This document shows, piece by piece, positions 21,534 through 26,631 of a stretch of 39,210 nucleotides of DNA. Positions within the stretch are counted from its first letter, which is position 1, and each line of letters opens with the position of its first letter. Under the pieces are notes generated by a model. The model searched no databases. It had not been told where the DNA came from and worked only from the letters and a program-made list of their open reading frames with translations. Source of the stretch: Firmicutes bacterium UBA3567. GTDB lineage: Bacteria > Bacillota > Thermosediminibacteria > Koleobacterales > UBA3567. The translations under genes and the position numbers were made by a program. The stretch is taken from contig DFNM01000195.1 in NCBI GenBank assembly GCA_002376045.1, forward strand, positions 1 to 39,210. Reading direction: 5' to 3'.

Positions 21534-22496
21534 TTATTTCGCCAGCTCAGGATGGATGTATTCAAAGAACTTTTCCAGAGCATCTACGATTCTCGGACCG
21601 GGACGGTTAACAATATCAGGGTCGATACCGTATATTTTGCCCTGTTTTATGGCGGTTATGTTTTGCCATCCAGGCCTGTCAGCTATGTTCTCTATCTTGT
21701 TCGAACCATGATCATACTGATGAATAATTATATCAGGGTTTCTTTCGATAACCACTTCCTCACTGAGCTTTGGATATTTACCTTCGGCATCTCCTGCTAA
21801 GTTGATACCTCCTGCAAGGGTTATAAGGCTGTCAACAAAGCTGCCGGGACCCGCTGACATCACCGGATCGTCCCACAGTTCATAGTAAACCAGAGGTTTG
21901 TCTTCTTCTTTCAGCTTCTCAGTCTTTTCTTTTACAGCTTCAATCCTGCTCTGCATATCAGCCGTCAGCTGCCCGGCGGCTTCAGACCGGCCAGTAGCAT
22001 CTCCAACCTTCTTTATTGAATTTATTATCTCGGATATATTGGACGGATTTACTACGAATACGGAAATATCAAGCTTTTCAAGCTGTTCCACCGTTTTTTT
22101 GTGCATTGAGGTGGCAAAAACCAGGTCCGGTTCAAGCTCAACAATTTTTTCAATATTGGGTTCACTAAAACTTCCTACTTTTGTTTTGGTAAGGGCTTCC
22201 TCGGGATAATTGCAGTACTCCGTTACACCCACAATTTGGTCTGTAAGTTCCAGAGCGAAAAGTATTTCCGTGTTGGAAGGAGCAAGAGATACAATCCTCT
22301 GAGGCTGTTTGTTTATAACAACCTCTCTGCCCATATCATCCACTATGGTTTTGGGAAATTCCTGGGACTGTTCTTTATCATTATCATTAACTTTTGTCAA
22401 TTGAGTTTGACCGCAGCCAGCAGTCAAAACCGCAATCAAAATTATCAATAAAGCAGCTACAACAATGACTGTTTTGTTCCGGTTCATTTTCATCAT
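21534..22496 (-). CDS. Periplasmic-binding-protein type 2 lipoprotein (BtuF-like substrate-binding protein)
   Basis: Signal peptide with the lipobox LTAGCG. RIVSLAPSNTEILFALELTDQIVGVTEYCNYP and EPDLVFA are typical of BtuF/FhuD-class binders. It is the first gene after a cobalamin riboswitch. Confidence 0.88.
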   Translation of the reverse strand: MMKMNRNKTVIVVAALLIILIAVLTAGCGQTQLTKVNDNDKEQSQEFPKTIVDDMGREVVINKQPQRIVSLAPSNTEILFALELTDQIVGVTEYCNYPEEALTKTKVGSFSEPNIEKIVELEPDLVFATSMHKKTVEQLEKLDISVFVVNPSNISEIINSIKKVGDATGRSEAAGQLTADMQSRIEAVKEKTEKLKEEDKPLVYYELWDDPVMSAGPGSFVDSLITLAGGINLAGDAEGKYPKLSEEVVIERNPDIIIHQYDHGSNKIENIADRPGWQNITAIKQGKIYGIDPDIVNRPGPRIVDALEKFFEYIHPELAK

Positions 22497-22674
22497 CCTT
22501 TCTTAAATTCTCAAAGGTTTATCAATAATCCTCCCAGGTACCAACCTGGGTATTCTGTGTTTCCCTATATTATTTAAAAGCTTCTATGCCTCAACGCTTT
22601 TGATACAAATAAAAAAAGCGGCAGCTAACCAGAGTAAGTATATGCATTTACTCATCCCTTTCCTCGAGGGTATT

Positions 22675-22915
22675 GTATTTTTTCGGCAGGTTTCCTGGCT
22701 TCCGAATCATGGCCTGTCGACGCCTTTCCGCCCGGCCCGGCTCAATCTGGTAACAGACCTGTCGGTTTCATCATAACTAATGCAGCAATAAACAAAAGTG
22801 TTTTTGTAAAACTTAAAACAATCTTTGGATTGAGTGCCCGAAGTCGACTTACTTTCCGGTACAGTGGCAGGTCCACTCGGGATTCTTACCTGATTCCCTT
22901 CTTCATACTATACTG
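22675..22915 (-). promoter_or_regulatory. Cobalamin (B12) riboswitch
   Basis: The minus strand reads AAGGGAAUCAGGUAAGAAUCCCGAGUGGACCUGCCACUGUACCGG, then a long variable insert, then the B12 box GAAGCCAGGAAACCUGCCG. It lies upstream of the BtuFCD-like operon. Confidence 0.85.
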
Positions 22916-22992
22916 AATTCTGTTTAAATTTTCATCCAGCCTGGGTTTTCTAAAAATAAATAAATGCTCATGCATTATCAAAAGAATGTTAT

Positions 22993-23208
22993 ACTTTTAT
23001 GGTATCGGCACCGCAGTAAATCAACTCATCTGCCAGGTTTTCTACATCTTTTCCCAGGAGCAAAGCTGTTACCTTCCACGTTTCCTAATTACCGGTGAAA
23101 AAGGCGGAGTTTCCACTATGGGAATTTTCAAAAACCCGCTTCTTCCCAGTCTCTATCCTCTATACTTATAGCCCCTACACTTAATTTGTAGTCCTGATAA
23201 TCCTCTCC
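22993..23208 (-). pseudogene. Frameshifted relic paralogous to the C-terminal extra domain of the ABC ATPase at 19119..20408
   Basis: The minus strand reads DYQDYKLSVGAISIEDRDWEEAGF / LKIPIVETPPFSPV (1-nt frame change, then stops), against YQGYKLSVGTINVGDGDWEKARFLKIPMVEAPPFSPV in the intact gene. DNA similarity is obvious between 19421-19540 and 23085-23205. Confidence 0.6.
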
Positions 23209-23266
23209 GGTATCAGCCCCAATTCATCGGCCTGGATTTTATAACAGTAATCATTATTAATCTCGA

Positions 23267-23524
23267 TTATTTATAATTAGATATGTAAAAATACTCTTTA
23301 GATGTTTTATAGTTTTTATCCAACTTATAACAAAACACCTCATCAAAATTTGTTTCTTTTAAATACGTATACATCTCTAAAAGATTTCTAAAAGCATCTT
23401 TAGCGTCTATTCCCGATGAAAATCCGATCACTTGCAAATTATCAATATCTGGTAAAATAGATTCTGAATTGGGTTGAAATGTATATCCTTCAATTGTTAA
23501 AAAAATATAATTATTTATATCCAT
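23267..23524 (-). CDS. Hypothetical 85-aa protein, translationally coupled to the upstream HKD nuclease gene
   Basis: Intact ORF whose ATG overlaps the last 10 nt of the nuclease gene. No family was recognised. Same AT-rich composition as its neighbour. Confidence 0.6.
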   Translation of the reverse strand: MDINNYIFLTIEGYTFQPNSESILPDIDNLQVIGFSSGIDAKDAFRNLLEMYTYLKETNFDEVFCYKLDKNYKTSKEYFYISNYK

Positions 23525-24327
23525 AATTTCATATACCTTCCTTTACCTAAAAATTTTATTAACCCTAAATCCCTAAGGTTTTGCAGTTGCTGTCGTATTT
23601 TTGCTTCGATGTTTTGATTTTCCGGATATATACATTGGAAATAGGCCTTATATTGATAGACATCGTTTAATTCAAAGATAAACTTATCAATTTTGTTTAT
23701 TTGCTTAAATACTGCTAGCTTCCAACCTGAAAGGCAACTTTCTATAGTTTTCACGCCCCCAGTATATAAGTCATCTTGCGGAATATCCTTACCAATAAAG
23801 CTATCTAAATTTATATTATGAGGAAATTTGTACTTTTTTTCTGTAGGAATATTACTAAGAATATCACTAACAGTATTTACAATTTCTTTAGTAACCTCAC
23901 CGCTAAATTCACTGCAGAAAATAGAATTAAAATCTTTACATACCTTGTCTACAAAAACATAATCATTCGAAAGAATACCATACTCATAATTGTAGCTTAA
24001 TCCATAATTTGTAAGATTAGCCGAGGTCACAATAACTACTTTTTTATCAAAAATACAAATTTTAGCATGCAAATTTTGGTAATTTCTTACCCTTCCGTTT
24101 TTATCTAAAATATAATCTATTGCTTCAATATCGGAAGCTCTTTTATAAAAACTTGAAAGATTAAAATTGGTAATTAGATCAAAATCCACCTTCTCCTTTT
24201 TATATTTGTAGATTTCTTCTATAACATCGTATTTGATAAAAGGAGAACAAATTTGAATACTCTCGATTGTTCCAGAAACACATTGTATAAATTTATTTTT
24301 CCATGGGCTATTAATAATTTCTAACAT
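23515..24327 (-). CDS. Phospholipase-D (HKD) superfamily nuclease with a C-terminal winged-helix-like domain
   Basis: A single exact HKD motif, HAKICIFDKKVVIVTSAN, fits HxK-x4-D-x6-(G/T)SxN. The C-terminus AKIRQQLQNLRDLGLIKFLGKGRYMKLW resembles the DNA-binding winged helix found at the ends of many restriction endonucleases. Confidence 0.8.
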   Translation of the reverse strand: MLEIINSPWKNKFIQCVSGTIESIQICSPFIKYDVIEEIYKYKKEKVDFDLITNFNLSSFYKRASDIEAIDYILDKNGRVRNYQNLHAKICIFDKKVVIVTSANLTNYGLSYNYEYGILSNDYVFVDKVCKDFNSIFCSEFSGEVTKEIVNTVSDILSNIPTEKKYKFPHNINLDSFIGKDIPQDDLYTGGVKTIESCLSGWKLAVFKQINKIDKFIFELNDVYQYKAYFQCIYPENQNIEAKIRQQLQNLRDLGLIKFLGKGRYMKLWI

Positions 24328-24751
24328 AATGCCTCACCATTTATCATTATATTGTTCATTATTCTGTGTACGCAAAATTACCTGCTATTAGATTCTATTA
24401 TAAAATAAGACATACATACTGCAACTGCAGCACCAGCAGAAGGATGAAAATTTACACCTGTATTAACTAGTGCTATATCAACTAACCTAGATGGATTTTA
24501 GGAAATAATTGGAACCGTTCCACTAAAAAATCCCTCCACTAATACTTTACCATACTGGATACTAATGTCAACGAATTTACTTTATTAATGGTCTCAATAA
24601 TAAAACCATTTTTATAGAACCACACGTGCCTCGACTTTTCTGTAATTGCTGCCAAATATGTATAACATCAGAATGCACTTCCACCTTATAAAAAAAGATG
24701 GAGACTTCTTCTTGTGATTTATACTAATTGTGCTAAAATCAATCAGAGCAT

Positions 24752-24822: not shown

Positions 24823-25971
24823 CTATGCCACACTACCTTCCAATGCTTCTTCATCAGTAAATCCTTCTTCGTAGACATCCCCTTCCGTGACAAGCTGATA
24901 AATCATTTCAGGGCTCATGTTCACCAATCCGAGCTTTTCAGCAGTCCTACCTTCTTTCCAGTAATCCACATCATGCATTGCACATGCCATCTGGATGACT
25001 GAATTAATTATAGGAGTTTCTACACCTACCATCTTCCCTATTGAAGAGATCGGAACCAGGCTCTCGGGAACATCCTCAAAGATATACCTGGTATATATAT
25101 TATCGGGTGCCTTTAATCCCTTATATCCTTTTGCGTTCTGTATTGCTTCATAAAGGTTCGAGCCTTCTGCATCATAGGTATACTTCAACCATTCCATAGC
25201 CGTAATGGCTTTCGCTCCCAGGGCTTTTGCTACTCTGACTCTCTCTTCATCCATTTTCTCTATGACTTTGGTAACTGATGGAGAAATTCCTTCTATATAA
25301 TACTGGAAATCTCCCTTGGTGGTTTCAATTCTTGCGCTGTTCAGTATCGTGGGGGCCGGGTGAAATATTGCACCAATGTTATTGAAACTTGTTTCCAGAA
25401 CATTTGAAGCAGGTATAAACTGGGGATAAGCCACATTGAGTTTTTCAACAACCTTCATGGTTTTATACGCAGGTATGGCAGCAACAGCAACAACGTTTTT
25501 TATGCCATAAATCTTAGCTCTTGCAGGACCTATTACCCTGCAGGCGTAAATGAATGTCTGAGCCTCAGCTATGATGACATCCTTATTAATCCCATGGGTC
25601 TTTAAAATATTTCTGAACTCCAGAGCACCACCAGTCCTGCCGGGATTGAGCACCACTATCTGCCCCTCTTCCAGATGGGGTGCGATATTATGAGCGATAG
25701 CTCTGTGAGCCGTGGCGGGAGTGGTAACCATTATCACATCAGTATTCCTTATAGCCTTCTCAATATCAATAGTCACCAGATTCAATCTTGCAAAACCTTT
25801 TTCTACTCCTTCGAGCTGTATACCTCCTCTAGCCCTAATTGGTTTTATTCTTTTTTCACTCCTGTTATATAGATTGACATCAAATCCCATAAGAGCCAAA
25901 TGTGCCGCCATTGCACACCCGCCATTGCCTGCTCCTATTACAGCAAAACGAGGTTCTTCCCGCCTATTCAT
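24823..25971 (-). CDS. NAD(P)-dependent octopine/nopaline (opine) dehydrogenase family protein
   Basis: 382 aa. N-terminal Rossmann motif FAVIGAGNGGCAMAAHLALMGFDVNLY. Collinear with the opine DH family through the C-terminal helical domain (NIGAIFHPAPTILN...YYIEGISP...YIFEDVP). AAGGGAGG RBS. Confidence 0.88.
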   Translation of the reverse strand: MNRREEPRFAVIGAGNGGCAMAAHLALMGFDVNLYNRSEKRIKPIRARGGIQLEGVEKGFARLNLVTIDIEKAIRNTDVIMVTTPATAHRAIAHNIAPHLEEGQIVVLNPGRTGGALEFRNILKTHGINKDVIIAEAQTFIYACRVIGPARAKIYGIKNVVAVAAIPAYKTMKVVEKLNVAYPQFIPASNVLETSFNNIGAIFHPAPTILNSARIETTKGDFQYYIEGISPSVTKVIEKMDEERVRVAKALGAKAITAMEWLKYTYDAEGSNLYEAIQNAKGYKGLKAPDNIYTRYIFEDVPESLVPISSIGKMVGVETPIINSVIQMACAMHDVDYWKEGRTAEKLGLVNMSPEMIYQLVTEGDVYEEGFTDEEALEGSVA

Positions 25972-26054: not shown

Positions 26055-26185
26055 CTGGCAATCCCCTGGAAAGCTTACGAGGTTAGCTGACGGATTCGGG
26101 TCCAGGTAACCCTACCTTTCACAAGAAAGGATTCACCCCAAATGATGGTTCCCCCGCTTCTTAAAAAAGAATTCAGCTTAAGGCT
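26055..26185 (-). promoter_or_regulatory. c-di-AMP riboswitch (ydaO-yuaA motif)
   Basis: The minus strand reads GAAGCGGGGGAACCAUCAUUUGGGGUGAAUCCUUUCUUGUGAAAGGUAGGGUUACCUGGACCCGAAUCCGUCAGCUAACCUCGUAAGCUUUCCAGGGGA. It carries the conserved GCGGGGGA, GGGGUGAAUCC, GGUAGGG and CCCGAAyCCGUCAGCUAACCUCGUAAGC blocks of the ydaO motif. Confidence 0.88.
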
Positions 26186-26631
26186 GACATATTGCTTTTT
26201 ATTATATTACATCTTGTATTTATTATATAACAATTTTATCTTTATGTCAAATAATTCCTTATTGCACGTAATCCTTAAAATAAAACATTTCTTTCGCTGT
26301 AAAAAGTCGCGCAGCGGAATATCAACGTTATTTGGCGAATTATAGCATGCTGATAAAAAACAACATATCCTGGATTCAGGATATGACAGACCTGATTGAG
26401 CTGACATGTTATATAATATAAGTAAGCCCGGTCATAGTAACAACGGTTGAAAGAATAACAAGGTATAGGCATTTTATTTAATAGCAGGATAACTTTTTTA
26501 TGGGATTTTACCTTTTGCTTGTCGAATCCACGTTTGATTAAATGGTTATAATTGGGTATATATAGCACGTCCAAAAAGATGTATAATAAAAATAACGGTA
26601 AATTTTAAAACATAAAAATGGGGGAATAAAA

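Follow-up and report, generated by a model that had tools for sequence, protein, structure and literature searches.

The window analysed here is the whole 39,210-nucleotide (nt) public contig DFNM01000195.1 of Firmicutes bacterium UBA3567, and the system in question is a pair of overlapping minus-strand genes encoding a 270-aa nuclease and an acidic 85-aa protein. Both open reading frames (ORFs) and their 10-nt overlap were found where the initial annotation had placed them (Table 1); database records list both proteins merely as unnamed or "hypothetical". By its domain architecture, the nuclease is a member of the described PLD-wH family, in which a phospholipase D (PLD)-type domain is fused to a winged helix (wH) (PMC11037411). 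The small protein belongs to Pfam family PF27350 (AF_1447), which accompanies restriction nuclease genes as a portable module, including those of three unrelated wH nuclease types. The pairing of PF27350 with solitary wH restriction nucleases appears to be previously undescribed, whereas the nuclease family itself is known.

Table 1. Features of the two-gene locus and its surroundings, in window coordinates.
Feature	Position	Strand	Basis or remark
Mobile two-gene cassette, extent	23237..24383	-	Sole block aligning with locus L001 (blastn)
PLD-wH fusion endonuclease gene, 270 aa, predicted N6-methyladenine (m6A)-dependent type IV enzyme	23515..24327	-	PLDc_2, DpnI_C
Single-HKD PLD nuclease domain, ~aa 1-160	23848..24327	-	Pfam PLDc_2, aa 17-136, E=1.9e-16
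HKD motif, H86-x-K88-x4-D93-x6-T-S101-x-N103	24019..24072	-	Read from the translation
DpnI-type winged helix, aa 200-268, predicted Gm6ATC reader	23524..23730	-	Pfam DpnI_C and DpnI alignment
Recognition helix, A241-K242-I-R244-Q245-Q-L-Q248	23584..23607	-	Mapped onto DpnI via the 4esj alignment
10-nt overlap	23515..23524	-	Small-gene ATG inside TTATGG, the codons of the conserved C-terminal Leu-Trp of the nuclease
Acidic 85-aa protein, PF27350 (AF_1447)	23267..23524	-	97 homologues, all PF27350-tagged
Terminator-like hairpin and T run	23104..23116	-	~150 nt downstream of the small gene; weak evidence
Candidate sigma-70-like promoter (TTGACA-16-TAAAGT with TG)	24544..24571	-	Consensus scan, 10/12 matches
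Short frame fragment, 27 aa	22990-23075	-	Between riboswitch and cassette
Cobalamin riboswitch	22668-22932	-	Rfam RF00174, 43.9 bits
BtuF-like binding protein/FecCD/ABC ATPase operon	21534-22496 and below		Directly downstream of the RF00174 riboswitch
Octopine/nopaline-dehydrogenase-family gene	24823-25971		Downstream of the c-di-AMP riboswitch
c-di-AMP (ydaO-type) riboswitch	26057-26188	-	RF00379, 101.7 bits
N6_N4_Mtase-like ORF, 246 aa	13230-13970	+	Second AT-rich patch (30-32% GC), 9.5 kb from the nuclease

The N-terminal part of the nuclease carries the catalytic domain. Besides the PLDc_2 match, the PLDc active-site motif was matched at E=6e-6, and the HKD stretch, LHAKICIFD-x6-TSAN, is present in a single copy, in agreement with the initial annotation. 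In an alignment of 28 diverse homologues, H86, K88, S101 and N103 were observed to be invariant and D93 nearly invariant. The AlphaFold2 (AF2) model has a pLDDT of 89, with disorder limited to the inter-domain linker (residues 168-180). Foldseek matches of this model include the homodimeric single-HKD proteins Zucchini, NucT and Nuc, as well as the restriction enzymes SauUSI and BfiI; against Nuc (1byr), the TM-score was 0.73 (target-normalised) with a Foldseek E of ~1e-7. The HxK-x4-D-x6-(G/T)SxN motif and the fold are those of Nuc, BfiI, NgoAVII and SauUSI. Since each chain has one HKD motif, dimerization to build a single active site would be required, as in Nuc and BfiI. The restriction enzymes among these relatives differ in how they recognize DNA: BfiI and NgoAVII have a B3-like DNA-binding domain, act at unmethylated sites and have cognate methylases, whereas SauUSI has an extra helicase and a separate modification-reader domain. 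All four relatives are without a DpnI-type wH and without a PF27350 partner.

The C-terminal winged helix, already noted in the initial annotation, was confirmed by several comparisons. The Pfam domain DpnI_C ("Dam-replacing" wH) covers aa 201-267 (E=1.4e-23), phmmer aligned the region without gaps to residues 189-257 of the DpnI structure 4esj (E=3e-11), and the C-terminal domain of the model matches DpnI in Foldseek. In DpnI, the residues within 5 Å of the two N6-methyl groups are E228, K229, R231, Q232 and Q235 (PMC3424567). These correspond to A241, K242, R244, Q245 and Q248 of the window protein, in which four of the five methyl-pocket or base-contact residues are therefore kept; these four, K242, R244, Q245 and Q248, are invariant across the same 28-homologue alignment. 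PADLOC profiles split the nuclease alike, with DrmC falling on the PLD part (E=3.8e-21) and mREase_II ("type II methyl-directed restriction enzyme") on the wH.

The PLD-wH family was named by Helbrecht et al. (2024; Front Microbiol 15:1286822; PMC11037411) from 27 examples, with Aba4572I and CbaI cloned. The window nuclease resembles these two in its single-HKD PLD domain, in its DpnI-type wH with K-x-R-Q-x-x-Q, in size (about 265-273 aa), in the absence of an adjacent Dam-type methylase and in the "hypothetical protein" gene that follows. The family recovered here is far larger than the 27 members of the 2024 paper, comprising 321 homologue clusters (~265-273 aa) with the same architecture; the closest organism-labelled homologue is from a metagenome-assembled genome of Thermosediminibacterales. 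The wH fusions were classed as m6A-dependent type IV systems, and PLD-wH was the sole class among them that could not be over-expressed or purified alone in Escherichia coli (PMC11037411). CbaI was shown to have Dam-dependent toxicity in vivo; toxicity was also seen for Aba4572I, even when Dam was absent, and it prevented the expression of two further PLD-wH enzymes in Dam- cells (PMC11037411). The enzymes were treated as single-chain proteins in that study, and the "hypothetical protein" genes that the Aba4572I and CbaI genes each precede were left unanalysed (PMC11037411).

On the strength of its predicted domains and conserved reader residues, the most likely identity of the window nuclease is a type IV restriction enzyme that depends on methylated adenine. 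A type IV-like enzyme with an accessory or regulatory subunit was one of the readings originally offered for the pair, and it is favoured by the m6A-type wH and the conserved, coupled neighbour, although the nuclease design had already been described. The proposal of a new system likewise holds in part: the nuclease was described as PLD-wH in 2024, but the pair was not matched to any described system.

DpnI, the type IIM enzyme of Streptococcus pneumoniae, is the closest comparison for the reader domain, since its wH methyl reader is homologous. In DpnI, however, the PD-(D/E)XK catalytic domain itself reads Gm6ATC and the enzyme cuts as a monomer inside the site, whereas the window nuclease has a PLD/HKD domain, is expected to dimerize and would probably cut outside the site. 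The dpnC-dpnD cassette of DpnI is similarly methylase-less and consists of the endonuclease gene and a second gene of unknown function (PMC4471560).

The GC content of the gene pair was 27.2%, compared with 41.1% for the whole window and 39.5-40.8% for the 10-kb flanks, which bears out the AT-rich block described at the outset. A 91%-identical copy of the pair (L001) lies in an unrelated context, after a TetR/ABC operon. The homology of the window to L001 extends only ~56 nt upstream of the nuclease start and 30 nt beyond the stop of the small gene; this limit at the edges of the pair indicates that the two genes form a mobile unit. The same pair with the same 10-nt overlap is also located between ThiF and CDP-alcohol phosphatidyltransferase genes (L002) and between DUF4015 and NrdD genes (L171), so that with the window and L001 four different neighbourhoods are represented, and pairing is strict in this closest clade (4/4 loci). 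Comparison with the L001 copy gave dN/dS values of 0.11 (nuclease) and 0.16 (small gene), indicative of purifying selection on both. The recurrence of the overlap is attributed to the position of the small-gene ATG, which falls within the sequence encoding the conserved Leu-Trp end of the nuclease, and an overlap of -10 was observed in 9 of the 13 PLD-wH loci that have an AF_1447 gene. Judged from these features, the locus is a compact, horizontally acquired two-gene cassette in which the small gene is translationally coupled to the nuclease.

A sibling population offers a further observation. Over 8.2 kb, the contig shares 99.4% identity with L083, a contig from a marine-sediment metagenome. 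In L083, a 28-bp insertion resembling a tandem duplication lies in the PLD-wH linker region (L083 3658-3685, corresponding to window position ~23837; proteins P0369/P0370). The insertion causes a frameshift between the PLD and wH domains that leaves a 179-aa product, and the small gene there is intact and 100% identical. This sibling population was seen in at least two other assemblies. As read from the sequences, it looks like a natural inactivation of the nuclease with the partner spared.

The 85-aa protein had been described as lacking a recognisable family, which is not the case. Its homologues share 44-91% identity with it, the closest being the 91%-identical P0001, and all carry a precomputed PF27350 "AF_1447" tag; the assignment is indirect, made via these tags, as the family is absent from the older local Pfam copy. 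A 34-member profile finds 502 clusters at 50% identity in a representative library. Among the 34 sequences, which come from Firmicutes, Chloroflexota, Omnitrophota, Campylobacterota and others, 11 positions are invariant, and the consensus reads YIFLTxEGxTFQPNS...PDIENLQVIGFxxG...A; the invariant or nearly invariant positions include no K or R. The window protein has a pI of 4.46 and a net charge of -5, and the family is acidic as a whole (median pI 4.5, mean net charge -6.3, pI <5.5 in 90% of members). Some Bacteroidota copies are shortened to 67-69 aa, and ~14 longer members carry extensions that have no Pfam match and no nuclease domain.

The AF2 model of the small protein (pLDDT 92) has a beta-beta-alpha-alpha-beta-beta fold. 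No significant structural relative was found by Foldseek, with best E values of 0.6 in the PDB and 0.08 in BFVD, and a profile search of PDB sequences returned nothing below E=1. There was no match in PADLOC or NCBIfam, and the local Pfam copy and PHROGs gave noise only. A literature search for PF27350 or AF_1447 yielded nothing, the name matching only unrelated antibody catalogue numbers and the like. Searches of viral contigs (IMG/VR), phages (INPHARED) and plasmids (PLSDB) returned no PF27350 match, which argues against a phage-side anti-restriction role. A clamp-binding-motif reading was rejected after testing. Identity of the small protein with DpnD, a member of Pfam DpnD/PcfM, was set aside with only two weak unrelated matches at E<=1 in the local Pfam copy; no DpnD sequence was compared directly.

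Metagenomes were scanned with the small-protein profile, and neighbouring genes were classified by Pfam and local profile hidden Markov models; 108 small-gene instances were counted, of which 102 were evaluable. A wH nuclease was found directly upstream on the same strand in 61 of the 102 loci. These upstream genes encode a HARE-HTH + NmeDI_C-type nuclease of ~250 aa (24 loci), a DpnI-like enzyme combining PD-(D/E)XK with DpnI_C (21 loci), a PLD-wH enzyme (14 loci, a number inflated by the manner of fetching some loci) or a partial wH gene (2 loci). One of these nucleases lies elsewhere in the locus in 16 cases, and the neighbour is other or unknown in 25, among them type I HsdR, a D12 methylase with DpnII, TdeIII, an SLFN-type helicase and a NucS-like protein. 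PLD-wH was upstream in just 2 of the 80 loci of the unbiased metagenome set. The initial annotation had suggested checking co-occurrence with HKD nucleases: such co-occurrence was observed in 13 of 34 PLD-wH loci, but it is not HKD-specific and extends to at least three unrelated nuclease families.

Distances from the upstream stop to the small gene mostly range from -10 to +20 nt, and the recurrence of this spacing in dozens of loci points to co-translation with the upstream nuclease. Small-protein identity was found to be 0.49-0.54 within a partner class and 0.49-0.52 between classes, and the classes interleave in a distance tree. Given this absence of partner-specific clades, the small module is portable, and its conservation does not depend on the accompanying nuclease. 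Many of the partners are GATC-related, namely DpnI, DpnII, D12 methylase and Sau3AI-like proteins. In the cultured bacterium Aliarcobacter cryaerophilus (L163-L166, 3159-6234), the small gene is divergent from an R-M-like pair encoding an m5C methylase and a MutH/Sau3AI-like endonuclease.

The commonest upstream partner, the HARE-HTH/NmeDI_C family (L084:908-1675 and ~23 further loci, e.g. L097, L120, L167 and L168), contains an N-terminal HARE-HTH-like wH and a C-terminal PD-ExK-like motif (IDVIW...FEVEHS), and bears the newer-Pfam tag PF27126 NmeDI_C. No match at E<=0.001 was obtained for this family in the local Pfam copy, where HARE-HTH was sub-threshold (E=0.0026), and none in NCBIfam. 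From its predicted domains, it is probably another solitary, possibly modification-dependent, nuclease.

Within the PLD-wH family, an AF_1447 gene follows the nuclease in 13 of 34 full-length loci. A Dehalococcoidia clade never has one downstream, and in a Sphingobacteriales PLD-wH locus (L003 6786-7019) an unrelated 77-aa ORF occupies the same -10 position; this ORF may have replaced the usual partner or may be fortuitous. Pairing is thus facultative across the PLD-wH family and firm within the clade of the window.

We lean towards reading the cassette as a PLD-wH type IV endonuclease with a coupled PF27350 partner that restrains or tunes the nuclease, an interpretation that we hold to be somewhat probable. 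By analogy with DpnI, the wH would recognize duplex DNA that carries fully methylated Gm6ATC (S-m6A-T-S in a looser definition), and no base would be flipped. Dimerization of two chains would bring their single HKD motifs together in one active site, as known for Nuc and BfiI. From the properties of these families, cleavage would take place near but outside the methylated site, probably with a preference for two sites, by metal-independent chemistry with a covalent phospho-histidine intermediate. A host that makes no Gm6ATC of its own would thereby destroy Dam-methylated DNA entering from phages or plasmids.

The small protein, whose synthesis would keep pace with that of the nuclease, would bind this enzyme as such or, like a DNA mimic, occupy its DNA-binding surface. 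An otherwise self-damaging nuclease would thereby be restrained or tuned, by a protein that would be neither a catalytic nor a specificity subunit. That it is a stoichiometric partner with this effect is proposed with low confidence, because of the apparent co-translation, the pairing of an acidic partner with a basic nuclease, and the published toxicity and failed expression of PLD-wH enzymes alone. The indifference of the small protein to the catalytic fold of its partner suggests that it targets the DNA-binding surface or a common host factor. By extension, PF27350 might be a portable "safety catch" or DNA-mimic-like modulator of solitary type IV nucleases of at least three unrelated folds, a generalization that we regard as doubtful and advance tentatively.

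Ugi, Ocr and AcrIIA4 are small acidic DNA-mimic inhibitors encoded by phages as counter-defences, and are mentioned here by way of analogy. The small protein resembles them, and type II antitoxins, in its length of ~85 aa, acidic pI, compact alpha/beta fold and tight gene linkage to a nuclease. It differs from the DNA mimics in that PF27350 is a cellular family that the phage collections lacked, and no sequence or structural similarity was detected (Foldseek against the PDB and BFVD).

Several observations weigh against this interpretation. Concerning methyl dependence, that of PLD-wH rests on the in vivo toxicity of one relative together with residue conservation, and the position of DpnI E228 is occupied by Ala (A241) in the window protein. 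GATC has an observed/expected ratio of 0.54 on the contig, but its depletion is uninformative on the Dam status of the host because other 4-bp palindromes are equally depleted (GTAC 0.49, CTAG 0.59). Concerning the partner, 21 of the 34 full PLD-wH loci are without AF_1447, so the small protein is not obligatory, and DpnI and its relatives FcyTI and Psp4BI function alone (PMC11037411). For a DNA mimic, the small protein is only modestly charged (net -5). At some loci the small gene is divergent from or distant to the restriction genes, which fits a looser functional link. Finally, a Sedimentisphaerales clade (L173 2678-4797) has an HTH_3 gene, PLD-wH and an N6_N4 methylase in the classical controller-restriction-modification (C-R-M) layout. 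Such a layout is odd for a supposedly methyl-dependent enzyme; a similar conflict was remarked for Aba4572I (PMC11037411).

Among the rival explanations, a toxin-antitoxin or addiction module of abortive-infection-like character survives best, although we consider it unlikely. Here, the nuclease would be a loosely specific toxin and the acidic small protein its cognate antitoxin, and the cell would be killed by nuclease set free when the cassette is lost or when infection destroys or titrates the antitoxin. A tight, mobile and translationally coupled two-gene unit is what such a module would look like, except that the toxin gene comes first. The published record is also suggestive, as Aba4572I is toxic without Dam, two more enzymes are too toxic in Dam- cells, and none could be over-expressed or purified (PMC11037411); yet the 21 PLD-wH loci without AF_1447 have an apparently intact nuclease. 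The charge relationship (pI 4.5 for the small protein and 8.0 for the basic nuclease) would suit an antitoxin, but this one is predicted to be fully folded (pLDDT 92) and has neither a labile disordered tail nor an autoregulatory DNA-binding domain. In the sibling population, a frameshifted nuclease beside an intact small gene corresponds to the loss order expected of a toxin followed by its antitoxin, whereas elsewhere the same small protein, without partner-specific clades, is located beside unrelated nuclease folds and methylases. The strict form of this rival is weakened because many nucleases occur without the small gene and one type of small protein serves unrelated nucleases. A related idea, a type VI secretion system PLD effector with its immunity protein, was set aside on the basis of the single HKD motif and the DNA-reading wH, no dedicated test having been made.

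In a second rival explanation, which we judge to be quite improbable, the small protein is no partner of the nuclease at all: it would be an expression regulator or an independent defence-island gene, and the nuclease a single-chain type IV enzyme. The high diversity of neighbours and the lack of partner-specific clades agree with this, as does the existence of many PLD-wH and DpnI-type enzymes without the small protein, but the cassette boundaries enclose exactly two genes, and the overlaps and gaps of -10 to +20 nt in dozens of loci point to co-translation with the nuclease. The position of the Aliarcobacter gene, divergent from a Sau3AI-like restriction-modification (R-M) operon, is typical of controller genes. 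However, acidity and the lack of conserved K or R argue against the small protein as a DNA-binding regulator, and no helix-turn-helix (HTH) family or other DNA-binding signature was detected in it (none at E<=1 in the local Pfam copy). On these grounds and its beta-beta-alpha-alpha-beta-beta fold, an R-M controller (C) protein was rejected.

The remaining suggestion, which we consider highly improbable, is that the PLD protein is a stray DrmC of DISARM, a type II enzyme like BfiI or NgoAVII whose methylase is unlinked, or a protein related to phospholipases or cardiolipin synthases. DrmC is the best PADLOC match of the PLD part, and NCBIfam gives weak DrmC, NucT and cardiolipin synthase matches, but the NCBIfam scores are all far below cut-off (DrmC 47.6 against 133). 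The structural neighbours are nucleases, the C-terminal DNA-reading wH and the whole architecture are kept in >300 proteins, and no drmA helicase, drmB (DUF1998) or methylase gene lies beside the gene. Context and scores thus speak against DISARM, BfiI-type R-M and a phospholipase.

The cassette lies between an octopine-dehydrogenase-like gene on one side and a riboswitch-controlled BtuF/ABC operon on the other. The spacer without ORFs on one flank measures 495 bp, not ~420 bp as first reported. The supposed pseudogene relic on the opposite flank proved to be mostly a cobalamin riboswitch, which would serve the downstream BtuF-like operon. A 27-aa frame fragment (...ALLLGKDVENLADELIYCGADTIKV followed by a stop) lies in the remaining ~335 nt between riboswitch and cassette; it alone on that flank resembles a relic and may be what the initial annotation saw. 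This fragment is presumably similar to the N-terminus of an electron-transfer-flavoprotein-like gene. On the other side, a c-di-AMP (ydaO-type) riboswitch precedes the octopine/nopaline-dehydrogenase-family gene, an unusual downstream gene for this riboswitch class that may reflect a link to osmolyte or opine metabolism. Other genes of the contig, including Germane, CheW/CheR/CheB and YheC/D ATP-grasp, fit a sporulating, chemotactic Firmicute.

The candidate promoter is located ~220 nt upstream of the nuclease start, outside the block common to L001, and is weak evidence, as promoter-like sites in the region are no more frequent than shuffled expectation. Terminator-like sites were more numerous than expected in a consensus scan (5 seen vs 1.2 expected). 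The 39-kb contig was found to contain no methylase of the D12 or Dam type. The sole candidate is the 246-aa N6_N4_Mtase-like ORF, whose match to the N6_N4 DNA-methylase profile is confined to the C-terminal third of that profile (motif I) and is followed by an SPPY motif in the "wrong" order; its sequence suggests either a permuted or a degenerate orphan methylase. The initial statement that no methyltransferase lies within 10 kb therefore stands only marginally.

What does a coupled partner mean for type IV restriction? Such restriction is usually seen as single-gene or McrBC-like, and PF27350, an ~80-aa family without annotation that occurs beside varied restriction genes in bacteria and some archaea, is a candidate for a general type IV accessory. 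Whatever its mechanism, PF27350 is worth adding to defence-system detection models. DNA readers of m6A are few and m6A-dependent nucleases are useful reagents; the conserved, co-translated partner suggests, as a remedy for the failed expression of PLD-wH enzymes, co-expression, which would be cheap to try. If the proposed restraint is true, it could explain the failed over-production and purification of PLD-wH enzymes, and the toxicity of some of them, when expressed alone in E. coli, and supposed one-gene type IV enzymes would be two-component systems.

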